A stretch of 11,326 nucleotides of DNA, taken from positions 1 to 11,326 of the IMG/VR virus record IMGVR_UViG_2534681774_000020; one strand, given 5' to 3'. Below are positions 1 through 11,326 of the stretch, piece after piece (position 1 is the first letter of the stretch; the number at the start of each line of letters is the position of its first letter). Made by a program: the position numbers and the translations under genes. The DNA is from a virus. Taxonomy: Duplodnaviria > Heunggongvirae > Uroviricota > Caudoviricetes. A model generated the notes under the pieces. That model saw only the letters and a list, made by a program, of their open reading frames with translations. It did no database searches and had not been told where the DNA came from.

Positions 1-445
1 CTTCAAAGAAGCGCTGTTCTTCTTCAAGATCACCTACGATTTGAGAAAAAACCCTATTTTTAAGGCTTTTCTTTATGATTTTGTCGTATTTTTTTAGCAA
101 TTGTTCACGTGTAAATGTACGTGTTGTTGTAGCGCTTTGCACAACGACATGCGTGCTTTGATTGGTGTCCTCAATGATGAATGGGATCGGAGAATATACA
201 GACTCAACAATGTTCGACGCTTTGCCGTCGGCATCGCGGCACATGTCAACGAAGGCTTTCCATTCAGCAAGACATTTTTCAGCTTCTTCTAATATGTTTT
301 GGTCATGCGTTAATGCAACATGGCGGAATTCCTCGCCAGCATAACTGGTATCATGGAAAACAGAGTTTGCGACCACCAGCTCTTTCCACCGTTCAGCGGT
401 TTGCAGGAACCGTTTGTACTCTTTCTCGATCGACTTCTTACTCAT
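1..445 (-). CDS. Partial CDS running off the window start (at least 148 aa in window, C-terminus missing); hypothetical protein, divergent from dre. N-terminus MSKKSIEKEYKRFLQTAERWKELVVANSVFHDTSYAGEEF...
   Basis: Manual translation of the minus strand from ATG (rc of cat at 443-445) is stop-free to position 1 with balanced composition. AGGA lies just upstream of the ATG. Absent from the ORF track, presumably because no in-window stop. Function not recognised. Confidence 0.6.
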   Translation of the reverse strand, partial: MSKKSIEKEYKRFLQTAERWKELVVANSVFHDTSYAGEEFRHVALTHDQNILEEAEKCLAEWKAFVDMCRDADGKASNIVESVYSPIPFIIEDTNQSTHVVVQSATTTRTFTREQLLKKYDKIIKKSLKNRVFSQIVGDLEEEQRFFE

Positions 446-654
446 TATTCCTACTCGATTTAGTTTTCTAACATAAAATTACTATGACAAATTTATGTCG
501 AATAACAGAGTGAGTAAAGGATCGAACTGTGATTTTTTGTCATCAATTTTAGAAAACCAACCGTAGAAACCACACTTCGCAAATTAAAGACCATGAAGGC
601 AACGTGTTACTGGTCATCATCAATCTATGATGGATTAAAAAAATCGGCATTTTA

Positions 655-686
655 TAACTTTAAATAATTGGCATTATTTAAAGTTA
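655..686. other. rox: rox-type site-specific recombination target: 14-bp perfect inverted arms around a 4-bp core, TAACTTTAAATAAT-TGGC-ATTATTTAAAGTTA
   Basis: Perfect inverted repeat seen directly. It is the reverse complement of the rox site of phage D6 as I recall it (TAACTTTAAATAATGCCAATTATTTAAAGTTA). Lies about 150 bp upstream of the Cre-family recombinase gene, the same arrangement as loxP and cre in P1. Confidence 0.85.
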
Positions 687-695
687 GGCTATAAT
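668..695 (+). promoter_or_regulatory. Putative sigma70 promoter for dre: -35 TTGGCA (668-673) inside the rox site, 16-bp spacer, -10 TATAAT (690-695)
   Basis: Hexamers read directly; perfect -10 and 5/6 -35 with 16-bp spacing. The overlap with the recombination site suggests autoregulation. Not experimentally anchored. Confidence 0.35.
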
Positions 696-838
696 CATGG
701 GTAGATGATCAGTATTGACATCACTCAAAATACGCGCCTCGAATCAAAGGCTTGAATCTTGAAAATTAACTTATAGCTACCCTGTCATTTTTATATTTTT
801 CGCGTAGCGTCATCTGTATATAGAGGTTAAATAGTTTC

Positions 839-1867
839 ATGAGTGAATTAATTATCTCTGGCAGTTCCGGTGGTTTTCTGCGCAACATTGGCAAAGAGTA
901 CCAGGAAGCCGCAGAAAACTTTATGCGGTTCATGAATGACCAGGGAGCTTATGCGCCGAATACTCTGCGCGACCTCCGTTTGGTGTTTCATTCCTGGGCG
1001 CGCTGGTGTCACGCTCGCCAGCTTGCCTGGTTTCCGATCTCACCAGAAATGGCCCGCGAGTATTTTCTTCAGCTGCATGATGCCGATCTGGCTTCGACCA
1101 CCATTGATAAGCACTACGCCATGCTGAACATGCTGCTTTCGCATTGTGGCCTTCCGCCACTTTCGGATGATAAAAGTGTTTCTCTGGCTATGCGGCGCAT
1201 CCGGCGCGAAGCGGCAACTGAAAAAGGCGAACGAACAGGCCAGGCTATACCGCTGCGGTGGGACGATCTGAAACTGCTCGACGTCCTGTTGTCCAGGTCA
1301 GAACGGCTGGTGGACCTGCGCAACCGGGCTTTTCTCTTTGTTGCATACAATACGCTGATGCGTATGTCGGAAATCTCGCGTATTCGTGTAGGAGATCTGG
1401 ACCAAACAGGTGACACTGTCACGCTACATATTTCACACACGAAGACAATAACGACCGCCGCCGGGCTTGATAAGGTGCTTTCCCGTCGCACTACCGCTGT
1501 GCTGAATGACTGGCTGGATGTTTCCGGGCTTCGCGAACATCCTGACGCAGTGCTGTTCCCGCCGATACACCGTAGCAATAAGGCCAGGATCACGACAACG
1601 CCCCTTACTGCACCTGCAATGGAGAAAATATTCAGCGACGCCTGGGTGTTGCTGAATAAAAGAGATGCTACGCCAAACAAAGGAAGATACCGGACGTGGA
1701 CCGGGCATAGTGCACGCGTCGGGGCCGCTATTGATATGGCTGAAAAGCAGGTGTCTATGGTGGAGATCATGCAGGAAGGAACCTGGAAGAAACCGGAAAC
1801 ACTTATGCGGTATCTTCGCCGTGGCGGCGTGTCTGTGGGGGCTAATAGCCGCCTGATGGATTCGTAA
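839..1867 (+). CDS. dre: Cre-family tyrosine site-specific recombinase, recognised as Dre (D6-type, rox-specific)
   Basis: 342-aa ORF whose N-terminus (MSELIISGSSGGFLRNIGKEYQEAAENFMRFMNDQGAYAPNTL) matches Dre as I remember it. Alignable to P1 Cre along its length (e.g. LAFLFVAYNTLMRMSEISRIRVGDL vs Cre LAFLGIAYNTLLRIAEIARIRVKDI; WTGHSARVGAAIDMA vs WSGHSARVGAARDMA). Exact rox site upstream. Confidence 0.95.
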   Translation: MSELIISGSSGGFLRNIGKEYQEAAENFMRFMNDQGAYAPNTLRDLRLVFHSWARWCHARQLAWFPISPEMAREYFLQLHDADLASTTIDKHYAMLNMLLSHCGLPPLSDDKSVSLAMRRIRREAATEKGERTGQAIPLRWDDLKLLDVLLSRSERLVDLRNRAFLFVAYNTLMRMSEISRIRVGDLDQTGDTVTLHISHTKTITTAAGLDKVLSRRTTAVLNDWLDVSGLREHPDAVLFPPIHRSNKARITTTPLTAPAMEKIFSDAWVLLNKRDATPNKGRYRTWTGHSARVGAAIDMAEKQVSMVEIMQEGTWKKPETLMRYLRRGGVSVGANSRLMDS

Positions 1868-1940
1868 ATTAAATTTCTAACACATCTTTTTAGATTAACG
1901 CCTTTGCTGTAAAGTACCCTCGCCTATTTAGGAGGGTGCT

Positions 1941-2285
1941 TTGCAGAGTAAAATCACGGAATCAAGACGCTTCAAGGTGGATGGTTACACCGTAACCTTC
2001 GCCGCTGGTGTTAAGAACAGTCATGCTGTCGTTGTGTTCGGCATCATGACCGGGCTTGAGGCCGTCCCTGTGTTTACCCTCGAAAAAAACTGGCGAAATC
2101 TGGAGGAAGCAGAAAGCTACGTCCGGAAAGTAACCATCATTGCCGCCGAAAAACTCCTGGCCCACTATCAGGAAAATTATCGCACTATGGTCGAGAAGAT
2201 TAATCTCGCTTTCACTCGCCCCACTACCGGCTTTATTGCACCGGATACTAATGCAGGTCGCTATCCTGCAAGGGGGCGTCGGTGA
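1941..2285 (+). CDS. Hypothetical protein, 114 aa, TTG start
   Basis: ORF with a strong Shine-Dalgarno GGAGGG at 1931-1936, 4 nt before the TTG start. First gene of the operon after dre. No recognisable motifs. Confidence 0.55.
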   Translation: MQSKITESRRFKVDGYTVTFAAGVKNSHAVVVFGIMTGLEAVPVFTLEKNWRNLEEAESYVRKVTIIAAEKLLAHYQENYRTMVEKINLAFTRPTTGFIAPDTNAGRYPARGRR

Positions 2286-2758
2286 AGACTTATTACACAT
2301 CTCTGAATTGTTACCCGTCTTCCTATCCAGAATTGTCCGGGAAGCTGTTAGCTCTATTAGCTAAAGCACCTACGGAATGGTTTAAGCCAGTCATTATCAA
2401 TCCACACTTCCTGGATTACGGATCTGTTCGCACTCGTAACGAACTCAAAAACCTACTGGCGCATGGATTCATTCGACACCGTGCCGGGAAAGGCTATCAG
2501 TTAGCGATTGCGCCAGAAGAGGCCGTGCGGCTATTCGCATATCGTGACAGCCAGACAAAAGCTCGGGTAATAGCTCAAATACTTCATAACGGCAGCACCT
2601 ATGCCCGCCAGTTTGGTGGCGACACGTCGCAGTTCTTGCGGGCGGTGCGATCGCTGGAGGAGCAAGGAGTTATTGAAAGTTCCTGTCTTCCTGTTCCTAC
2701 CGTTCCACATATCAAACGTCGGGTTTACACCTTCACGCAGAGAGCTAAAAAACAATGA
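2282..2758 (+). CDS. Hypothetical protein, 158 aa, possible winged-helix DNA-binding fold (inference)
   Basis: GTG start overlaps the upstream stop (GTGA at 2282-2285), with AGGGGG Shine-Dalgarno 5 nt upstream. The C-terminal segment ...SQFLRAVRSLEEQGVIES resembles a recognition helix plus wing. Function inferred only. Confidence 0.6.
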   Translation: MKTYYTSLNCYPSSYPELSGKLLALLAKAPTEWFKPVIINPHFLDYGSVRTRNELKNLLAHGFIRHRAGKGYQLAIAPEEAVRLFAYRDSQTKARVIAQILHNGSTYARQFGGDTSQFLRAVRSLEEQGVIESSCLPVPTVPHIKRRVYTFTQRAKKQ

Positions 2759-3249
2759 TTTACGTAAAAGTGAAACGCCTACATCCGGCAGCAAAACTTC
2801 CAGCTTATGCCACCTCCGGATCGGCGGCGATGGATTTTGAGGCTGTTGAAATAAAACCATGTGTCGATAGCAATGGTGCAATTTCCTCAAGCTGGTGGGT
2901 GTACACCGGACTGGCTATGGAGATCCCGCCCGGCTGGTGTCTAAAACTCTATCCGCGTTCCGGATTGGGCTGCAAAAAACATACTCGCCTGGCTAACTGC
3001 GTAGGAATTATCGACTCCGATTATCGCGGTGAAATCATGGCAAAACTGATTACTGATCCCGGCGGGGAAGGCGTTTGTCTCAAGCCTGGAATGGCTGTCA
3101 TGCAAGGAATTTTTGAGCGTGTTGAACAAGTCTCACTAGTCGAGGTTGAGGAACTCAACGAAACGGAACGTGGTGCCGGTGGCTTTGGTAGCACATCGGA
3201 AGACCGCGTTGAAATCAAGCGTACACCGCTTCAGTACGCAAAGTTTTAA
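2755..3249 (+). CDS. dut: dUTP diphosphatase (trimeric dUTPase)
   Basis: ATGA start/stop overlap with the upstream gene. Canonical dUTPase motifs are present: PRSGLG (motif II), GIIDSDYRGE (motif III), RGAGGFGSTS (motif V), and an AAMDFEA motif-I-like segment. Confidence 0.9.
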   Translation: MIYVKVKRLHPAAKLPAYATSGSAAMDFEAVEIKPCVDSNGAISSSWWVYTGLAMEIPPGWCLKLYPRSGLGCKKHTRLANCVGIIDSDYRGEIMAKLITDPGGEGVCLKPGMAVMQGIFERVEQVSLVEVEELNETERGAGGFGSTSEDRVEIKRTPLQYAKF

Positions 3250-3263
3250 GTAGAGGAAGGATT

Positions 3264-3926
3264 ATGGTCAGCACTTTTCAGGTGTTCCCCAAATACAAAT
3301 GCCACAGCATCATTCGGGCATCGAAAATCAAAGATATTGTTATTGTCGGCAAAGCTTATGCGCCCATTTTTGGCAGTATCGAAGTCGTTGAGCCAAAAGG
3401 AATGACGCTTCGTGTTGATGGTGTGTTCTTGGAAAAATTCCGACCGCAAATAGGAGGATATCTCGTCACTGCTGAAAATGGCTATCTGGTCTATGTGCCA
3501 GAGAAAGCATTTGAAAAATGCTATAGCCGGGTTAACGACGCCTCCGAAAATGGGGTATCGCTCAGCATTGAAGGTCACAATGGGGTGACATTCATTACAG
3601 CCAGGGACGTAACTATTTCTGCTGGCGGTATCGCTACTCTACAAGAAGAAATCGACCTTGAAGCAGCCGACTTTTCTGACGCGCTGATGTGGCTGAAGGA
3701 TGGCAAGAAAGTTGCCCGGCGCGGGTGGAACGGCGAAAACCAATTCTGCTGGCTGGTTCCTGAAGGACAGTACCCGGCACGAATGGAAGCCATTAAGGGA
3801 TATTTCCCCGGCGATCTCGTTCCGTATGGTGCTTATTTCGCCTTAAAAAATGCACAAGGTGTAGTTGTTCCGTGGTTGCCTTCTGTAGGCGACTTACTGG
3901 CATGTGACTGGTTTGTAGTGGAGTGA
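3264..3926 (+). CDS. Two-domain protein, 220 aa: unknown N-terminal domain (about 135 aa) fused to a C-terminal DUF2829 (Tad2-like) domain
   Basis: Strong Shine-Dalgarno (GAGGAAGGA) before the ATG. The C-terminal 85 aa (ALMWLKDGKKVARRGWNGENQFCWLVPEG...VPWLPSVGDLLACDWFVVE) carries the DUF2829 hallmarks as I recall them (GKK..RRGWNG, VPW, DLLA.DW..VE). Domain assignment is from memory. Confidence 0.75.
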   Translation: MVSTFQVFPKYKCHSIIRASKIKDIVIVGKAYAPIFGSIEVVEPKGMTLRVDGVFLEKFRPQIGGYLVTAENGYLVYVPEKAFEKCYSRVNDASENGVSLSIEGHNGVTFITARDVTISAGGIATLQEEIDLEAADFSDALMWLKDGKKVARRGWNGENQFCWLVPEGQYPARMEAIKGYFPGDLVPYGAYFALKNAQGVVVPWLPSVGDLLACDWFVVE

Positions 3927-3932
3927 TTTAAC

Positions 3933-4733
3933 GTGGAAAATACTAAAGCAATTCAATACCGCTTGCGTAATGGCCTGCTGGTGGCTGTTAACGCCGACAT
4001 GTCACTGCCGTTTGACACGATTGAACGTACTATCATGACGTATCTCGGCTTTAATGAAGAGCTGAATGAAGAGCATGGCGTAGCTATATGGAGTGATGCA
4101 GAAAGCGGCGTTCATCGTTACATCACCGCCAGGGGCAAAGACTACTCTCTGGAAGAACTGTTTACCCTTGCACAGTCTTTCGAATGTGTAGCATTAGACA
4201 TGTTTAATGATCCTGCTATAGCGCAACGACTTATACGCGAGCTTGGGCTATCCGTTACACCAATTATCTTTAAGAATGGCAGCCTGACTGGCACATGGCG
4301 CGTAGAACGCATCTCAAACTACCTTCCATATAACCGACAGTTAAATGGAGTAATCTCCGGCGTTAATCAGCCCGTAGCGTGTGAAAATGTAAACCTGGTT
4401 GCCGCTGTTTTGGCAACCGCATGTCGTGTTATCGGTTTGGCTAAACAGGCATTTATTCATTTCCCAAATGGTGCAGAAGGTAGCGCAGAGATTATCGCGT
4501 GTGATTTCGAATTTACCTGGATGCTACGCGAATATCTGGACCAAACAGTATTCCGTGCCGAAGAACTGGATATGTATATCACGTCAACGATTCCAGACGA
4601 TGTGCGAGCTGAAGCAATCGCTACAGCCAGGGCGAAATGCCGTGCGGCGATTGCAGAGCAGGCCAAAGAAGAACCGTCCGATGAAGCCGTGGCTGATGTT
4701 GAAGCAGAGGTAGCGGAGGATGCTGACGCCTAA
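3933..4733 (+). CDS. Hypothetical protein, 266 aa, with a poly-acidic C-terminal tail (EEPSDEAVADVEAEVAEDADA)
   Basis: GTG start 7 nt after the upstream stop, with GGAG 9 nt upstream. Last gene of the plus-strand cargo operon, followed by an intrinsic terminator. No recognisable catalytic motifs. Confidence 0.7.
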   Translation: MENTKAIQYRLRNGLLVAVNADMSLPFDTIERTIMTYLGFNEELNEEHGVAIWSDAESGVHRYITARGKDYSLEELFTLAQSFECVALDMFNDPAIAQRLIRELGLSVTPIIFKNGSLTGTWRVERISNYLPYNRQLNGVISGVNQPVACENVNLVAAVLATACRVIGLAKQAFIHFPNGAEGSAEIIACDFEFTWMLREYLDQTVFRAEELDMYITSTIPDDVRAEAIATARAKCRAAIAEQAKEEPSDEAVADVEAEVAEDADA

Positions 4734-4788
4734 AAACATCACCGAATTAGCTGGCTGACAGCAGAAAAAATCATTGAGTGATAGTAGG

Positions 4789-4818
4789 AAGCCCGCCTGG
4801 TTGAGCGGGCTTCTTTTC
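4789..4818. terminator. Rho-independent terminator (8-bp GC-rich stem AAGCCCGC/GCGGGCTT, 8-nt loop, then CTTTTC) between the convergent cargo operon and doc
   Basis: Hairpin and T-tract read directly. Positioned 56 bp after the stop of the 266-aa gene and overlapping the doc stop codon. The T-run is short, so it is probably stronger for the plus-strand transcript. Confidence 0.55.
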
Positions 4819-5197
4819 AAATATTGGAACCAAATAATTCACGTAGTTTTTCCGCTACTGAAGATACGGGGATTTCACCAGTTGCGGCCCCCACCGCAAG
4901 TTCCACCAGCACGGGAGAATCATATACCTGTATACCGTTACGGCGTAGAAATAGCAGCGCACTGTTTAGCGCGGTACGCTTATTGGCATCATTGAATATA
5001 TGCCCTCTCGCAGTAGCCACCAGGTAGGTTGCGGAGACTTCGAAAAGGTCGGTAATCTCTTCGTACACAACTCTGGCCTGGACTCTCCCGATAATGGCCT
5101 CTGCCCTGCCCGGATCTGACATGCCAGGCAGGCCGCCGTAGCGGTTTATATTCGCATCATGAAGCGCAATAAGTTCTTCCGGTGATATATGCCTCAT
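4817..5197 (-). CDS. doc: Doc toxin (death on curing; Fic-family protein) of the P1-type phd-doc addiction module
   Basis: 126-aa ORF that matches P1 Doc as I recall it ([22 protein letters not shown]...). Its ATG overlaps the phd stop by 1 nt (TAATG), as in P1. Confidence 0.95.
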
Positions 5198-5418
5198 TAT
5201 CGGTTAACCAGTTCCTTGTTGGTGGAGTCCAGGGTGTCAAACAGGGATGCAAATTCAGCATCCAGCGCCGCTTTTTTGTAGGCTTCGAAAGTAGCCTTGC
5301 TGACAATTACTGCTGGCTCACGGCCTCTGCGGGTGATTTCAACCTCTTCCCCGGCTTCAACATTGTTGAGCACTTCAGAAAGGTTGCCACGCGCGGTACG
5401 GAAGTTAATGGATTGCAT
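5197..5418 (-). CDS. phd: Phd antitoxin (prevent host death), 73 aa
   Basis: Sequence [73 protein letters not shown] matches P1 Phd from memory. The true start is the ATG at 5416-5418 (GAGG 6 nt upstream), not the GTG used in the ORF track. Confidence 0.95.
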
Positions 5419-5426
5419 AAACACCT

Positions 5427-5450
5427 CGTGTACTCGTTATGTGTACACAA
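5427..5450. promoter_or_regulatory. phd-doc operator: two Phd-binding palindromes (GTGTACTC imperfect at 5428-5435, TGTGTACACA perfect at 5440-5449) just upstream of phd
   Basis: Palindromes read directly. They match the GTGTACAC-type subsites described for the P1 phd-doc autoregulated promoter (established knowledge, recalled from the literature). Confidence 0.6.
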
Positions 5451-5490
5451 CTATAAACTTCACAGGCATAAAGCACCAGCACTTTGCAGC

Positions 5491-5880
5491 TTAAATAACC
5501 GGACAATCATCAAATTCCCCACTTCGGGCATCATTGATGACATGAGTGATCACACCAAAAACAGCATTACTGCCCGTGTATCCATCGTCATCTACTGGTA
5601 ACGCCTCTTTCTTCCCGGTGCTTAAATCCTCCAGGTGCTGGCGCGGATACTTCCTGTATCTCTTTATGCGATATTCACCCTCCATAGCGCACACAAGCAG
5701 AGAACCCTCAACCGGAGTAAGCGAGGAATCAACCACCAGCAAAGCACCCTGCAATATTCCCTCACGGTGATGGCTATCAGCTGCCCGCATGAAGTAGGTT
5801 GCTGATGGATGCCTGATTAGTTGCTGATCAAGAGAAATTCGGCTTTCAACATAATCCGCCGCAGGAGAAGGGAAGCCCAT
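5491..5880 (-). CDS. humD: HumD, UmuD'-like translesion-synthesis accessory protein (S24 peptidase fold, pre-processed form)
   Basis: 129-aa ORF beginning [12 protein letters not shown]...HPSATYF, which aligns with E. coli UmuD from the Cys24-Gly25 cleavage site onward (UmuD: [29 protein letters not shown]). Same humD-phd-doc neighbourhood as in P1. Confidence 0.9.
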   Translation of the reverse strand: [129 protein letters not shown]

Positions 5881-5898
5881 AGCGTTTTACCTCAATGA

Positions 5899-5918
5899 TA
5901 CTGTTTATTCATACAGCA
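5899..5918. promoter_or_regulatory. LexA (SOS) box TACTGTTTATTCATACAGCA upstream of humD
   Basis: CTGT-N8-ACAG architecture, 16/20 match to the consensus TACTGTATATATATACAGTA. Lies 19-38 bp upstream of the humD start codon. Confidence 0.6.
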
Positions 5919-6003
5919 TACATTGAAAAGGCATAGTTTGTGAAAGCGGGGTTTGTAGGCGCGCCACGCTGGGGGCTAATCACATTTCTCCCCCATCTTG
6001 CCG

Positions 6004-6255
6004 TTATTTTTTTGGTGCATCCTCGTTCTGATACACCGGATCGCTCCCTTTTGGCAACTGGAGGCTTAACTGCCGGTAGTGCCGTAGCCGTTCCATGAAA
6101 TAGGCGCGCAGGTTTTCCGGTTGCTCACGGGCCACCTGCTCTGCAATCACAGGTATATTCAGCCGTTCTTTGTAAGCAACGCCGCTGGCGGCAAGGTCTA
6201 CGTTCACCTTGTCTCGCTCTTCCTGGCTTTTAGCTGCTATATTTCGATCTGACAC
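6004..6255 (-). CDS. Hypothetical protein, 83 aa (GTG start), function unknown
   Basis: ORF with a GGAGG Shine-Dalgarno 6 nt upstream of the GTG start. Hydrophilic, protein-like composition. Sits immediately upstream of the humD promoter region. Not recognised. Confidence 0.55.
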
Positions 6256-6287
6256 AAGAAACCTCCAGGAGTTAGTGGATCAGGCAC

Positions 6288-6638
6288 ATGCACAATAACG
6301 TTCTCAATGTTAGCCGTTCAATTCAGACAATCAGAGACTGCACCAGTGTGGTGGCATCAATCCCATTGCGAAACAGCATAGACGAACTGCAAATTCGTGT
6401 ATTGAATCCGAATCAGGCTAATAAGCAATTGCGCTTTATTTTGACGCTGAAAAGTGAAACAGAGGGGATAAAGCACAGCGTAAAAGTGTTTTCTGAGGCC
6501 ATTCTGCTTAATGGGAAGCTCCGGCATCTGATAAGGCCAGAACGTCAATATCCTGACGTCCTGGCGCGTGAAAAAGACCTTCTTTCTGAAGTTCAGGATA
6601 GGGTGATCGATTTCGTCAAATGCTATCCCCTGCATTGA
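6288..6638 (+). CDS. Hypothetical protein, 116 aa; coding strand uncertain
   Basis: The plus-strand ORF has a purine-rich sense strand and a balanced charged composition. The antisense ORF 6357-6635 is Phe/Tyr/Gln-rich and looks like a shadow frame. Weak Shine-Dalgarno; overlaps the 3' end of the convergent gene at 6623-6907 by 16 bp. Confidence 0.4.
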   Translation: MHNNVLNVSRSIQTIRDCTSVVASIPLRNSIDELQIRVLNPNQANKQLRFILTLKSETEGIKHSVKVFSEAILLNGKLRHLIRPERQYPDVLAREKDLLSEVQDRVIDFVKCYPLH

Positions 6639-6907
6639 GGGCAGGTGTTCCCTTCCGCAAAGTAGGGAAAACTGCTATCAAGTTCATCACACCATCTGCG
6701 ATGGTCGTAGCACCAAAACGCCTCCCACGGTGCACGGAAATACTTCATCCACCAGGACACTCGATCAGGTATATCTGCTGGTGGCAGTTCTTCTGGCAAT
6801 AATTTGCCTGATAATTCCCTTTCCGCCCGCGACAGCATTTTTTTGAGGCTCGCGTTCTCTTTTTCAAGCTCATCTACGCGCACCTGTAATTCAGCTTTCG
6901 TTGGCAT
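6623..6907 (-). CDS. Hypothetical protein, about 94 aa: N-terminal coiled-coil-like segment and C-terminal Cys/His cluster (CYDHRRWC...CPQC)
   Basis: Internal ATG at 6905-6907 preceded by GAGG (5 nt); overlaps the end of the 538-aa gene by 17 nt, consistent with coupling. The longer ORF-track version (from 6988) would lie entirely inside the upstream gene in another frame. Confidence 0.5.
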   Translation of the reverse strand: MPTKAELQVRVDELEKENASLKKMLSRAERELSGKLLPEELPPADIPDRVSWWMKYFRAPWEAFWCYDHRRWCDELDSSFPYFAEGNTCPQCRG

Positions 6908-8507
6908 GGTCCGCCTCATGCTTTTCAGCCACCAGCGGCAATAAAGCCCTGGCCATCTTATGAACCAATAGTGCATCAATAATGCCAAGCGTATGCCCCG
7001 GCTTAATGTTTAATGCCGCCTCAAGGTGACACCTTTCCAGGCCACTTTTCTCGGCTTGTTTATGATGATCTGGTGTAATAACGTCGCCCAAAACACGGCT
7101 AATTCTTTCTCGTAATTGCTGGGTGCCAGCACACTTGATCGCTGTATCGTGGAGACGGTTAACCAGTTCGCGATAAACATGCGGCTTAATTCGGATACGT
7201 TCACCGGTGACGCCCTTTCCTGGTGCTGGCACCGAACTATCCGGAATATCCGGATAGTTGCCTGCCAGTCTACGCAAAACGGCCTTAACAGCCTCAATAC
7301 GGTCATCATCGCAATTTTCCAGCGTATCTATGCGATCGAGCATGATGATGGCGTTATCAATATCAGGATTGCCGGTCCACTCATTACCGCGATTGGATTC
7401 GGCAGCCTGGTTGCCGCGTACTGGTTGATTATCGGCTTTACCCAGTCTGTCGTTGCTGCATGAATGCCCTTCCAGCAAGGCCAATGCTTGTCGCATGAAA
7501 TACGCAATATGTTTGCCGTGGTAATCGTCTTCATCGATGTGAAAAGCGATACTGCGGATGTATTCAATTGCGTTTTCAATGGCCTCCGGCGTTATCGGCG
7601 CTGACATATTTTGATTTTGGAGTGCCAAGACGCGACTGGCATCCTCAACGTTCTTCACTGCATCTGCGCAGTAGTTATAGCGATTGCATTCCACTAACTT
7701 CTGCTTGAGATTTTCAATTGCTTGCGCGACATCAGCCTGTATTTCCGGAACTGGCGGAACGGCTGTCTGCTGCTCTCGAACGTCATTAGTCGCTATCGGT
7801 TCTGCTGCCAACTGACTGGCATATTTGTTAATGGTAACGATAAGCTCTTGCTCGGCCTCATCCAGACAATCACCGATACCTCGCCTGTCACCGTCAAAAT
7901 CATCGAAATCGGCACGAATCTTGGCAACCTTCTGGATTGCGGACAACACCTCACTAGGAATTACCGGATAGTTGGTTGACGTTTCCGCGATTTCCCGAAA
8001 ATTATTGGTTGACGAATTCTTGTTTTCCCGAAAGTTTCCGGACTGAAGCATGGCGGCGCGGCAGGCGTTCCATATTTCGGCAGCAATATCGCGCTCGCTA
8101 TCGGTTAATTTGTACGTGGAAACATAGCCAGAGAGCATTTCTACGTTTTCCGGAGTTGCTTCTTCCGGCACTACCGGCGCTGGCGGGGCGATGCGTCCAA
8201 GCAACTTATTTACCTCTTTCGCCATCGCGTCATATTTATCTAAATGGCGATTAGCTTCTAAGCAGACTCGGCGCATCTGATCTGAGTTAACTCGTTTAAC
8301 TGGATCTGCTCCCAGTGATGCCAGTGCAATTCGTGCCAGCTCACGCACAACTTCAGGGGGCGCGTGACGGTCATTCAGGTCATCCCACAGACGTAGCATG
8401 TTATCGCTATCAGGGTTAACATCCTCATTAGTTCCGGTCAGCGCACTAATAACCTCATCGGCTGCTTCAATAATTTTCTGCGCCTGTTCTCTGGTAATAG
8501 TGGTCAT
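6891..8507 (-). CDS. Large acidic hypothetical protein, 538 aa, no recognisable catalytic motifs
   Basis: Long clean ORF starting 10 nt after the stop of the 87-aa gene, with GGAG 8 nt before the ATG. Asp/Glu-rich; no Walker A, DEAD/helicase, nuclease or reverse transcriptase motifs seen by eye. Confidence 0.8.
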   Translation of the reverse strand: MTTITREQAQKIIEAADEVISALTGTNEDVNPDSDNMLRLWDDLNDRHAPPEVVRELARIALASLGADPVKRVNSDQMRRVCLEANRHLDKYDAMAKEVNKLLGRIAPPAPVVPEEATPENVEMLSGYVSTYKLTDSERDIAAEIWNACRAAMLQSGNFRENKNSSTNNFREIAETSTNYPVIPSEVLSAIQKVAKIRADFDDFDGDRRGIGDCLDEAEQELIVTINKYASQLAAEPIATNDVREQQTAVPPVPEIQADVAQAIENLKQKLVECNRYNYCADAVKNVEDASRVLALQNQNMSAPITPEAIENAIEYIRSIAFHIDEDDYHGKHIAYFMRQALALLEGHSCSNDRLGKADNQPVRGNQAAESNRGNEWTGNPDIDNAIIMLDRIDTLENCDDDRIEAVKAVLRRLAGNYPDIPDSSVPAPGKGVTGERIRIKPHVYRELVNRLHDTAIKCAGTQQLRERISRVLGDVITPDHHKQAEKSGLERCHLEAALNIKPGHTLGIIDALLVHKMARALLPLVAEKHEADHANES

Positions 8508-8517
8508 GTGTTACTCC

Positions 8518-8781
8518 TTAACCCGCAGTGCTTTCAACTGATGAGGGGAACAAAATCCTTTCATCAAATCCGGCATTCATATCATGGACAGCAACACACC
8601 AATCCATCGACGAACGATTATCAAGAGCCTCCATGATTTCATCCATGCGGCGCAGGTCATACAGGTAAATGCTTTTATCGCCAATGGTGTAAAAACCAAT
8701 TTTTTTCGGTGATGGGCAGCGATCAAGAACGTCCTGTAATTCGTTCAACCATGCCTGTTCTTTTTTTGTCAAAGTTGCCAT
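8518..8781 (-). CDS. Hypothetical protein, 87 aa (MATLTKKEQAWLNELQDVLDRCPSPKK...)
   Basis: ATG at 8779-8781 preceded by AAGGA (7 nt spacer). The ORF-track version extends to a GTG at 8916 with no Shine-Dalgarno and would overlap a better-supported small ORF in another frame. Confidence 0.55.
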   Translation of the reverse strand: MATLTKKEQAWLNELQDVLDRCPSPKKIGFYTIGDKSIYLYDLRRMDEIMEALDNRSSMDWCVAVHDMNAGFDERILFPSSVESTAG

Positions 8782-8795
8782 ATCAGTTTTCCTTA

Positions 8796-8975
8796 TTAAT
8801 GCGACAGTGGTTTTTCCAGCGGTTTTTGCGCCGCGCTGGGCTTTTTGCAAAAACCACAATCCATCATCCCGTAATATTTCATCAACCCCATCCGTCGGTT
8901 GCTGAGTCTCACCCACTGCCAGACGCCAGGAGCGTTTCTACGAACTAACAGAATCTTTGCTTTACGGTTTTTCAT
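8796..8975 (-). CDS. Unannotated small basic protein, 59 aa (MKNRKAKILLVRRNAPGVWQWVRLSNRRMGLMKYYGMMDCGFCKKPSAAQKPLEKPLSH); paralog of the ORF immediately upstream
   Basis: Manual translation. Its ATG overlaps the stop of the upstream 59-aa ORF (ATGA at 8972-8975). It stops 14 nt before the Shine-Dalgarno/ATG of the 87-aa gene. N-terminus is conserved with its neighbour. One residue below the ORF-track cutoff. Confidence 0.35.
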   Translation of the reverse strand: MKNRKAKILLVRRNAPGVWQWVRLSNRRMGLMKYYGMMDCGFCKKPSAAQKPLEKPLSH

Positions 8976-9151
8976 CTTACTGCGTACCCTTTCTTCCGCC
9001 TGTTCTGTGACGCAGTAGGCTTACGCTTTGCGGCAAAAGCCACCTGACCAAATAATGGATGGATTACCGCTATCTTATGGTTGCTAATAACCAGCTCCAC
9101 CACACGCACAGGCCGCTGTAAAAAAAGTCGTTTTGCCTTACGGTTTTTCAT
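8972..9151 (-). CDS. Unannotated small basic protein, 59 aa (MKNRKAKRLFLQRPVRVVELVISNHKIAVIHPLFGQVAFAAKRKPTASQNRRKKGYAVR)
   Basis: Manual translation. AGGAGA Shine-Dalgarno 8 nt upstream of the ATG. Shares the MKNRKAK-[RI]-L-[FL]-[LV]-[QR]-R N-terminus with the downstream paralog; the nucleotide repeat TTACGGTTTTTCATC marks both starts (8961-8975 and 9139-9153). Confidence 0.35.
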   Translation of the reverse strand: MKNRKAKRLFLQRPVRVVELVISNHKIAVIHPLFGQVAFAAKRKPTASQNRRKKGYAVR

Positions 9152-9243
9152 CGCTTTGCTCTCCTGCGTCTCTTTGCTGCTCGTCGTGCCGCTGCAATAC
9201 CGGTATGGCGGCGCTTTGGTGCCGGGATGATGTTGTCAGCCAT
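9148..9243 (-). CDS. Possible arginine-rich micro-ORF, 31 aa (MADNIIPAPKRRHTGIAAARRAAKRRRRAKR)
   Basis: Its stop overlaps the start of the next ORF (ATGA at 9148-9151). No convincing Shine-Dalgarno. Could instead be untranslated leader sequence. Confidence 0.2.
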   Translation of the reverse strand: MADNIIPAPKRRHTGIAAARRAAKRRRRAKR

Positions 9244-9323
9244 CAGGACATGTGGCTTTGCAATTAGCGCAGAAGCCCAAAAACGAGTCGGGTACGGTAA
9301 CAAGCCGATACATGCCACACGCA

Positions 9324-9812
9324 TTACTCACCTCCTTTGATGCGAATGCCTGTTGCAATGCTGTTTATGATGCTGTCAGTGCATGGGGTAGAAAGCTGGG
9401 CATCTCCAGCAATTTTCATGACCTCAACATCTGCATATCGAATACCGAGGTGTATCAGACCGGCTATGCCTGACTTAAGCCGAGCATTTTCCATAAATAG
9501 AACTTTTGCCCGCTGTTTTTCTGCTTCAAGCTCAACGCGCAGCTTCCCTACCGTTAGCGCAATATCCTCGTTCTCCTGATCGCGGCTTTTGATGTATTGC
9601 AGGTTTCTTTCCCGTTCATCCAGCAGTGCCAGCACGGTTTCTGGTCCGGTCAGAAATTTGAAGGCGTTGAGCGCATCAATATCCACACCGTAATCTTTAA
9701 GTTCCTGTTCACTTAACAAGTCATCATCAGCTGGCAACATTAACAGGCGTTCCATTGCTGGAATTGCACGTTCCGCCACCTCACGCAGTGCCTGGTAATT
9801 AATTTCGCTCAC
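9324..9812 (-). CDS. Hypothetical protein, 162 aa, reminiscent of Ead/Ea22-like early-region proteins of lambdoid phages
   Basis: GTG start overlapping the upstream stop (GTGA at 9809-9812). N-terminus MSEINYQALREVAERA... and an ALLDERE coiled-coil segment resemble Ea22-like proteins from memory. Low-confidence family call. Confidence 0.65.
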   Translation of the reverse strand: MSEINYQALREVAERAIPAMERLLMLPADDDLLSEQELKDYGVDIDALNAFKFLTGPETVLALLDERERNLQYIKSRDQENEDIALTVGKLRVELEAEKQRAKVLFMENARLKSGIAGLIHLGIRYADVEVMKIAGDAQLSTPCTDSIINSIATGIRIKGGE

Positions 9813-10315
9813 TGGTTGCCTCCTTTGCGAAGCTGGGCAGCAAAGTCAACTAACCACTCAGTCATTTCAACCTTCCCTACCAGGTCTGAACCAGGGTACA
9901 TACAGCAATCACTCTGCGCCGCTTTGAAATCCTTATACTCATATTCTTGGGCCACCAGATTTTTTGCAGCTTCTATAGCAGCATCCACCCCCTGCGCCCG
10001 GACTTCAGCCAGGAAAGCATCAGTGGTTGGCGTTTCAGGTATCTGTCTCCTCATCCGTTCTATTGCATGATTGAACCCGAAGTCTTCCGCGAGAGATACG
10101 TCATCCATATTGTCATTGTCATCTTCAATATCCCGTGATTCTGGAATTGCAGACTTTATTCCCGCATTCTCCGCTGCCAGCGCCGCGCACTTGGCCTCAA
10201 GAGCGGCAACCACTTCCTGATGGTCTTTGTACTTAACGTATGAGCCGGAGATGTCATCACCTTCGGTGTTTAGCCATGCGTCATTGCAATTCACTGCGTA
10301 GGTTCTGATGCTCAT
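9809..10315 (-). CDS. Hypothetical protein, 168 aa (MSIRTYAVNCNDAWLNTEGDD...), first gene of the coupled minus-strand operon
   Basis: ATG at 10313-10315 preceded by GGGAGAG (7 nt spacer). The ORF-track extension to 10372 reads through into the IS21-family end and lacks a Shine-Dalgarno. Confidence 0.7.
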   Translation of the reverse strand: MSIRTYAVNCNDAWLNTEGDDISGSYVKYKDHQEVVAALEAKCAALAAENAGIKSAIPESRDIEDDNDNMDDVSLAEDFGFNHAIERMRRQIPETPTTDAFLAEVRAQGVDAAIEAAKNLVAQEYEYKDFKAAQSDCCMYPGSDLVGKVEMTEWLVDFAAQLRKGGNQ

Positions 10316-10384
10316 GTTGATGCTCTCCCGCCCCTGACAGACGCCAGGCCAGTCAATAAAGTATCCGCACAATGCCTACCCTCA

Positions 10385-11326
<942 letters not shown>

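Follow-up and report, generated by a model that had tools for sequence, protein, structure and literature searches.

An eight-gene chain upstream of hot in a D6-type phage-plasmid and its 538-residue mosaic protein of the PmgU family

The virus record IMGVR_UViG_2534681774_000020 (Caudoviricetes) was analysed over positions 1 to 11,326, and this whole stretch of 11,326 nucleotides (nt) is called the window. The window is part of a P1-related phage-plasmid. Eight consecutive minus-strand open reading frames (ORFs), running from 10315 down to 6623 and encoding proteins of 168, 162, 58, 59, 59, 87, 538 and 94 amino acids (aa), occupy the slot upstream of the hot gene. According to the sequence comparisons, this interval appears to be the promoter-distal part of the early accessory operon located upstream of hot in the P1/P7/D6-type phage-plasmids, and the slot here seems to contain genes acquired from lambdoid prophages, namely from their early-left (exo-xis / ea) region. 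The 538-aa product belongs, as a long mosaic form, to the PmgU / Upf89.5 / EaA-N family, and it is probably neither an enzyme nor a virion or Dar-type protein. On balance, we favor the reading that the block is an early, coupled polycistronic unit, and that its non-enzymatic products bind host or phage proteins and tune the lytic/lysogenic outcome or the host physiology. The genes of the block and the features within them are as follows.

9809-10315, minus strand: 168-aa protein of the Ea22 family, isoelectric point (pI) 4.4, ATG start; phrog_368, E=5.5e-51
9324-9812, minus strand: 162-aa protein of the Ea22 family, GTG start; phrog_368 and phrog_250
9148-9324, minus strand: 58-aa protein, pI 12, Arg-rich tail; phrog_13831 over the full length, E=8.6e-42
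8972-9151, minus strand: 59-aa basic protein, paralog A; phrog_1380, E=6.9e-24
8796-8975, minus strand: 59-aa basic protein, paralog B; phrog_1380 (E=4e-33) and phrog_12350
8518-8781, minus strand: 87-aa acidic protein, a conserved stand-alone protein of Enterobacterales prophages
6891-8507, minus strand: 538-aa gene
7266-8507, minus strand: residues 1-414 of the 538-aa protein, about seven all-helical modules with Pro-rich linkers between them
6894-7265, minus strand: residues 415-538 of the 538-aa protein, PmgU-type C-terminal module; phrog_21459, E=2.6e-101
7957-8036: linker-coding repeats within the 538-aa gene
6623-6907, minus strand: 94-aa protein, whose start overlaps the 538-aa gene by 17 nt; phrog_3797, E=8e-60

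An earlier note on this DNA, made from the letters alone, described up to eight minus-strand genes chained by overlaps or very short gaps. The coordinates were confirmed, with overlaps of 1-17 nt and gaps of 10-14 nt. The junctions, in order from the 168-aa gene, are -4, -1, -4, -4, +14, +10 and -17 nt, where negative values are overlaps. A Shine-Dalgarno-like sequence precedes most of the starts, for example AAGGAG at the 538-aa gene and AAAGGAGG at the 162-aa gene. PHROG profiles are matched by all eight products (E 7e-24 to 3e-101), and identical starts are called by the Prokaryotic Genome Annotation Pipeline (PGAP) in related plasmids. In a generic scan, promoter-like and terminator-like sites within the block were not above the frequency in shuffled sequences, which is compatible with a single transcription unit. 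The PHROG matches, the PGAP starts, the ratios of nonsynonymous to synonymous substitution rates (dN/dS) described below and the lack of excess internal sites indicate that the ORFs are real genes. The coupling geometry, namely stop/start overlaps, very short gaps and ribosome-binding sites, is present along the chain, and the block is probably a translationally coupled operon. With regard to the conservation of the neighborhood, which the earlier note had proposed as a check, the large gene and the 94-aa gene overlap by the same 17 nt in six related loci, on both D6-type and P1-type backbones, and in these loci an 87-aa or 69-aa gene is located directly upstream.

The statement that none of the genes has a recognizable enzymatic motif is borne out by the Pfam, PHROG, NCBIfam and PADLOC scans, which agree. 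No domain suggesting an enzyme was detected for the block proteins in Pfam, NCBIfam or PADLOC, and the NCBIfam and PADLOC scans gave no match for any of the eight proteins. As PADLOC covers defence systems and not anti-defence systems, its null result says little. Rfam gave no match in the window at gathering thresholds.

The 538-aa protein had been called strongly acidic, which overstates its composition. The protein is mildly acidic, with a pI of 5.06 and 88 Asp and Glu residues versus 62 Lys and Arg residues. In Pfam, only sub-threshold chance matches were obtained, and no PDB sequence was matched by the protein (nothing at E<=1) or by its family profile. The AlphaFold2 prediction from a 51-sequence alignment (mean predicted local distance difference test score, pLDDT, 44; predicted template modeling score, pTM, 0.23) is all-helical, with 19 helices and long unstructured linkers. 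Separate PHROGs match the residues 1-160, 144-298 and 389-538, and a short shared motif is located at the residues 440-480. The best 120 database homologues align piecewise, and the homology breaks recurrently at the residues 50-56, 115, 146, 177-185, 241-254, 288-306, 389 and 415-426. The modules of the residues 1-414 are shared piecemeal with EaA/DUF551 proteins and other lambdoid early proteins. In an exhaustive search of 1.84 billion cluster representatives, 1,629 proteins of 107 to about 460 aa were found to have one or more stretches in common with the protein. Among 148 representatives, the fusion partners are DUF551 (50), Ead_Ea22 (6), DUF5490 (3), dATP/dGTP pyrophosphohydrolase (2) and Lar (1).

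The linkers are related to the positions of the breakpoints. A common Pro-rich motif is found in five linkers: PVVPEE (109), PVIPSE (181), PPVPEI (251), PITPEA (304) and PDIPDS (419). The predicted linkers contain 56% of the 469 breakpoints against a background of 35%, and for unique positions the value is 48% (binomial p=5.5e-4). At the DNA level, a 33-nt tandem duplication at 7972-8036 encodes NFRENKNSSTN/NFREIAETSTN, which is part of one linker, and the 18-mer at 7957-7974 (NYPVIP) recurs at 7243-7260 (NYPDIP). Both sites of the 18-mer are main homology breakpoints (residues 175-185 and 415-426). According to these features, the linkers appear to be the sites where recombination shuffles modules between phages. 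Self-BLAST detected no internal repeats in the protein, and the only relation between modules found by hhalign was between M3 and M5 (95% probability, 35 columns), which may partly reflect the alignment of mosaic sequences. The 538-aa protein is therefore not a simple tandem-repeat protein. The dN/dS values of the 538-aa gene against its relatives are 0.06-0.57, with 0.06-0.20 in the PmgU module and approximately 0.5 in the middle modules. These values point to purifying selection on the protein, strongest at its C-terminus. A 516-aa homologue, 90% identical over the full length, is already public in D6-type contigs with the same neighbors.

About ten homologues of the 538-aa protein at NCBI, the closest ones among them, carry the name "dTDP-6-deoxy-L-hexose 3-O-methyltransferase", and the possibility that the protein is a sugar methyltransferase was considered. 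The name is all that speaks for it. Neither a methyltransferase domain nor any other Pfam or NCBIfam domain was detected, no PDB sequence is matched, and the prediction is all-helical and rich in linkers. This identity was rejected as extremely improbable, and the name looks like a propagated mis-annotation. A further idea, which we regard as rather improbable, is that the PmgU/EaA-N family is a combinatorial library of small helical target-binding modules with the conserved Pro-rich linkers as recombination joints. The 538-aa protein would then serve as an adaptor or sponge for multiple targets, hitting several host factors or immune sensors together, with the 87-aa and 94-aa proteins as its partners. 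If true, the family would be comparable, on the side of phages, to polymorphic, modular effectors.

In the closest plasmids, in the loci of NZ_CP117014 (3266-4702) and NZ_CP076307 (3895-4977), the annotation of the large gene consists of one gene of about 300 aa and pseudogene fragments. For NZ_CP117014, tblastn gives an uninterrupted frame over the residues 56-538 of the large protein. Some of the large-gene "pseudogenes" may be artefacts of start-site choice or annotation arising from the mosaic N-termini.

The first two genes of the chain belong to the Ea22 family. The earlier note recognized the 162-aa protein as Ea22-like, and this identification is confirmed by a match of 108.8 bits to the full profile (positions 1-139) of Pfam Ead_Ea22 (PF13935, gathering cut-off 27 bits). 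The 168-aa protein belongs to the same family, with 43.3 bits over the profile positions 48-138, the central and C-terminal part. A 100% identical copy of the 168-aa protein is present in NZ_CP058619. The 162-aa gene begins on the last 4 nt of the 168-aa gene, which include the stop, and the residues 1-94 of the 162-aa protein are 94% identical to RCS47 gp058. The following three proteins, of 58, 59 and 59 aa, are extremely basic (pI 10.8-12). ORFs 97-98% identical to the 58-aa gene product are present in RCS47 and D6-type plasmids. The two 59-aa proteins had been described as paralogs, correctly: they have diverged to 33% identity, and both match phrog_1380. A sequence search of the PDB with the 162-aa and 94-aa proteins gave chance-level matches only (E 0.14-0.39).

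The 87-aa and 94-aa proteins flank the 538-aa protein in the chain. The 87-aa protein is confidently predicted to have a small alpha/beta fold with no known structural relative, and nothing was found in the PDB sequences at E<=1. The 94-aa protein consists of a leucine-zipper-like N-terminal coiled coil, a Pro-rich linker (LPPADIPD) and a C-x3-H...C-x2-C cluster, and the Cys and His residues are conserved in the family alignment. Its weak bZIP matches are explained by the leucine-zipper-like N-terminus. The family is small (33 clusters), its members with known context are mostly located on contigs of about 60-100 kilobases (kb), and several members are frameshifted. Homologues are named "antitoxin PHD"; the assignment of the 94-aa protein to the Phd/YefM antitoxins was rejected, as it has no Pfam PhdYeFM_antitox match. 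No similarity was detected between the 94-aa protein and PmgV.

Several further observations concern the 94-aa gene. A 39-aa ORF in an alternative frame of this gene (6616-6735, minus strand; …FGATTIADGVMNLIAVFPTLRKGTPALNAGDSI) matches the C-termini of several 94-aa homologues, which indicates that frameshifted variants without the Cys/His cluster circulate. In RCS47 (NC_042128), a 99% identical copy at the locus positions 4127-4408 (minus strand) is unannotated in RefSeq; it shares sequence with the end of gp050 and with the convergent gp049. In the NZ_CP117014 locus, a second paralog of the 94-aa protein, 44% identical, is located at 2690-2995 (minus strand) directly downstream of the first, and after it a toprim-domain protein is encoded at the place of hot.

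The surroundings of the block place it in a known slot. The features used for this are listed below.

839-1867: Cre-like tyrosine recombinase
4817-5197: doc
5197-5424: phd, the genuine copy of the element
5491-5880: humD
6004-6255: hot, downstream of the eight-gene block
6288-6638, plus strand: convergent 116-aa gene, which closes the block; phrog_2594, E=1.6e-46

A dUTPase is also encoded in the window. The earlier view of a lambdoid early-like operon on a P1-type backbone is correct with regard to the dense lambdoid operon and the relation to P1. The backbone itself, however, is of the D6 type (rep_cluster_1704; the cre-like gene near doc), and is not P1 proper. The slot upstream of hot, which is the pap-hot interval in P1-type genomes, is syntenic in P1, P7, RCS47, D6 and plasmids, and its contents vary among RCS47, P7, P1 variants, D6 and many E. 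coli plasmids of 86-100 kb. In P1 the same slot holds the pmgT-upfO operon, and in P7 the "hea" operon. Elsewhere it is filled with Ea22-like, Eaa, DUF551, ASCH, DUF4014, XF1762 and many hypothetical genes. The matches of relatives to the interval are patchy, and no phage or plasmid record covers at least 80% of it. The slot has been published as "variable region 8", and P1-like phage-plasmids have eight hypervariable regions, of which the pmgT-humD region is one (PMC9603915).

The 116-aa gene and the 3' end of the 94-aa gene have 16 nt in common, and the 116-aa gene is annotated, at 98-99% identity, in RCS47 (gp049), D6 (orf106) and plasmids. In P1, the late promoter LPhot is located directly upstream of hot; the window positions 6256-6622 contain no match to it, and the 116-aa gene is located there instead. 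On the plus strand, a 220-aa protein (3264-3926) has a C-terminal Tad2-like domain (Thoeris anti-defence 2; PF11195, E=2e-22, 79.9 bits). Its gene is in a divergent plus-strand operon beside the dUTPase gene and is annotated as DUF2829 in relatives. This Tad2-like protein is a candidate for anti-defence, outside the eight-gene block.

The upstream end of the block is formed by an insertion sequence (IS), with the following features.

10389-11326, minus strand: 3' part of IS100 (IS21 family), 100% identical to annotated IS100 copies
10444-11226, minus strand: complete istB; Pfam IstB_IS21, E=8e-112
10312-10388, minus strand: remnant of a 60-aa Ead/Ea22 N-terminal ORF, the last 24 codons and the stop, truncated by IS100

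The istA gene extends beyond the edge of the window. The insertion point is 73 base pairs upstream of the 168-aa gene, and IS100 and the operon have the same orientation. The homology to related plasmids breaks exactly at 10388, and the IS100 junction is 10388/10389. The window positions 10201-10388 are 100% identical to the uninterrupted plasmid NZ_CP058619, where the 60-aa ORF is intact and shares 4 nt with the start of the 168-aa gene. In the relatives, at least seven further co-oriented genes precede the 60-aa ORF, including those for DUF968, metallophosphoesterase and DUF4752. From this comparison, IS100 appears to have removed the 5' half of the operon together with the native promoter. 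As the upstream part was cut off, the operon must be taken as having at least eight genes.

The P1 reference record places the C1 operator OpmgT (formerly Op88) and two predicted promoters at the start of the operon that follows pap, and the P7 record annotates "Op(hea)" at the same place as a predicted regulator of the "hea operon". In the P1-like contig L011, which has an 87/576/94-aa triad, a C1 operator with one mismatch is located directly after pap and before the operon. The C1 operators before the equivalent operons in P1, P7 and L011 imply early, repressor-controlled expression. Such an operator (ATTGCTCTAATAAATTT-like) was not found with three or fewer mismatches anywhere in the window, and the P1 late promoter LPhot has no match in the window. 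No convincing sigma-70 promoter was found upstream of the block by a generic scan, which performed no better than chance, and the minus strand of the interval between IS100 and the first gene contains no promoter-like site.

These results bear on the possibility that the block is silent or decaying cargo, a recombination leftover that IS100 has separated from its promoter. IS100 takes the place of the upstream half of the operon, the adjacent ORF is truncated, and the minus strand between the IS and the first gene lacks a promoter-like site. In the closest relatives, the large gene and neighboring genes are broken and annotated by PGAP as pseudogenes, and some 94-aa homologues are frameshifted. 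On the other hand, the eight ORFs are intact and have ribosome-binding sites, and the dN/dS values are below 1 throughout, lowest in the PmgU module. The 100% identity of the IS flank to the uninterrupted relative indicates that the insertion is recent, and the IS is co-oriented with the operon, so that read-through from istAB is possible. We judge decay to be improbable; it is compatible with the other readings.

Under the reading that we favor, the genes would be transcribed as one polycistronic mRNA when repression is lost, and the translation of the genes in the chain would be coupled. The products would act stoichiometrically by binding host or phage proteins. Lambda Ea22, which is tetrameric and acidic-headed, is thought to work likewise, biasing the infection to lysogeny and host survival. 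The block would then be a dispensable cassette for tuning and host interaction, and not a core function. The operon is lambdoid, early and repressor-controlled in relatives, which fits an accessory role in host interaction.

Several points weigh against this reading. The proposed protein binding is derived from the lack of catalytic domains and from the analogy with Ea22. With no C1 operator, P1 late promoter or convincing sigma-70 promoter upstream in the window, the expression in this element is uncertain. The pro-lysogenic data come from integrating lambdoid phages and not from plasmid prophages. In addition, the AlphaFold2 model of the 538-aa protein is poor, and the module boundaries, placed near the residues 50, 116, 166, 250, 303, 370 and 415, depend on secondary structure and breakpoints only.

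Host takeover or anti-defence, to which the earlier note assigned the block by its general type, is a plausible and reasonable class by analogy. The main rival to the favored reading is the more specific proposal that the block is an anti-defence cassette, in which one or more products, including the 538-aa protein, neutralize host immunity early, for example as decoys or sponges. The block is located in a hypervariable, early, repressor-controlled accessory region, the rapid shuffling of modules suggests an arms race, and several of the products are acidic. In a few cases, modules of the family are joined to the Lar domain of restriction alleviation or to a domain of the dATP/dGTP pyrophosphohydrolase type, and the Tad2-like anti-Thoeris protein is encoded 3 kb away on the other strand of the same element. 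However, these fusions are rare (3 of the 148 representatives), and the block has no homology to Dar proteins or to any Pfam anti-defence domain. In P1, in-frame deletions of pmgT, pmgU and pmgV were made; none of the three belongs to the five pmg genes that proved essential, and the remaining 24 knockouts formed plaques normally and left antirestriction unchanged, in laboratory hosts and with the restriction systems of that study only (PMC9024508). We regard the anti-defence proposal as unlikely.

The same P1 data bear on the possibility of virion morphogenesis proteins or Dar-like, head-packaged proteins. The earlier note had compared the 538-aa protein with the large Dar antirestriction proteins of P1. 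In a tblastn search of 50,697 phage records, the protein matched one place each in P7 and D6, which is the slot upstream of hot, and none in the dar genes. Its P1 counterpart is PmgU. CRISPR interference also found pmgT, pmgU and pmgV to be non-essential, and the lowest relative plating of the three was that of pmgU (0.21 and 0.064) (PMC10695390). In the P1 virion, PmgC and PmgG were the sole previously uncharacterized proteins found, and the products of pmgT, pmgU and pmgV were not reported (PMC9024508). The analogy with Dar fails because these three genes are dispensable, have no antirestriction effect and are not represented among the reported virion proteins. Moreover, the P1/P7 operon is C1-controlled and has no Lpa late promoter. 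What remains in favor of a virion role is inherited names only ("Pmg" for putative morphogenetic function, and "putative morphogenetic protein" in RCS47), and such a role is highly improbable.

The block is a further filling of a known hypervariable slot, taken from catalogued families without assigned function. The DNA of the 87/538/94 segment has matches in 2,061 of 5,426 complete E. coli genomes, and most of these matches are in prophages of the chromosome. The point worth noting is the scale of linker-bounded module shuffling, as more than 1,600 protein clusters share modules of the large protein. This shuffling gives a concrete handle for dissecting the binding targets of early accessory proteins. 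The 87-aa protein, for which a confident fold without a known relative is predicted, is also worth noting and should be readily accessible to structural and functional study. The public names of some members, namely methyltransferase, antitoxin and morphogenetic protein, are misleading.

Among known systems, the PmgU family (P1 PmgU, P7 Upf89.5, D6 orf104 and RCS47 gp050; phrog_21459) shares the genomic slot with the 538-aa gene. P1 PmgU is 95.5% identical, in frame, to the residues 415-526 of the 538-aa protein, and the C-termini of P7 Upf89.5 and RCS47 gp050 are 98% identical to its C-terminal module. P7 Upf89.5 additionally shares the residues 50-306 with 67% identity. D6 orf104 is annotated as "similar to P1 gene pmgU", and RCS47 gp050 carries the morphogenetic label quoted above. 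P1 PmgU (111 aa) is the C-terminal module alone, and Upf89.5 and D6 orf104 have 432 and 360 aa, respectively. The 538-aa protein has more modules and is near the long end of the family (107-582 aa). It also has a 12-residue terminal extension followed by the 94-aa gene, whereas in P1 and P7 a shorter PmgU ending is followed by the unrelated PmgV or Upf90.8.

With the P1 Dar system (DarA, DarB, Hdf, DdrA, DdrB and Ulx), the likeness is generic only: large P1-type proteins whose function is not obvious by eye. The dar genes differ from the block in locus and regulation, and the Dar proteins are head-packaged. The EaA/DUF551 (PF04448) proteins of P22-like, Stx and other lambdoid prophages are closer, as their non-DUF551 parts are 57-76% identical to the residues 1-426 of the 538-aa protein. 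The 538-aa protein itself has no DUF551 (no PF04448 match at E<=0.1), and the PmgU-type module occupies its place.

The lambda Ea22/exo-xis region is related to the block through the 162-aa and 168-aa proteins, which share the Pfam Ead_Ea22 membership. Both regions consist of early, non-essential, mosaic genes with many tiny ORFs without assigned function. Unlike the lambda pL operon, the block is located on a plasmid prophage with a P1-type repressor system, and the C-terminal domains of its Ea22 proteins differ from the solved C-terminal domain of lambda Ea22, as no PDB sequence is matched. Lambda ea22 is among the earliest transcribed genes, and is non-essential and pro-lysogenic; its product forms tetramers and is a mosaic of a conserved helical part at the front and exchangeable acidic C-terminal domains, DUF551 being present in one variant (PMC10834534, PMC7093339). 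The pro-lysogenic phenotype was shown for lambda and Stx phages only (PMC7093339). In the logic of its design, the 538-aa protein follows Ea22, where a conserved front of helices or coiled coil is combined with C-terminal domains that can be swapped, DUF551 among them (PMC10834534).

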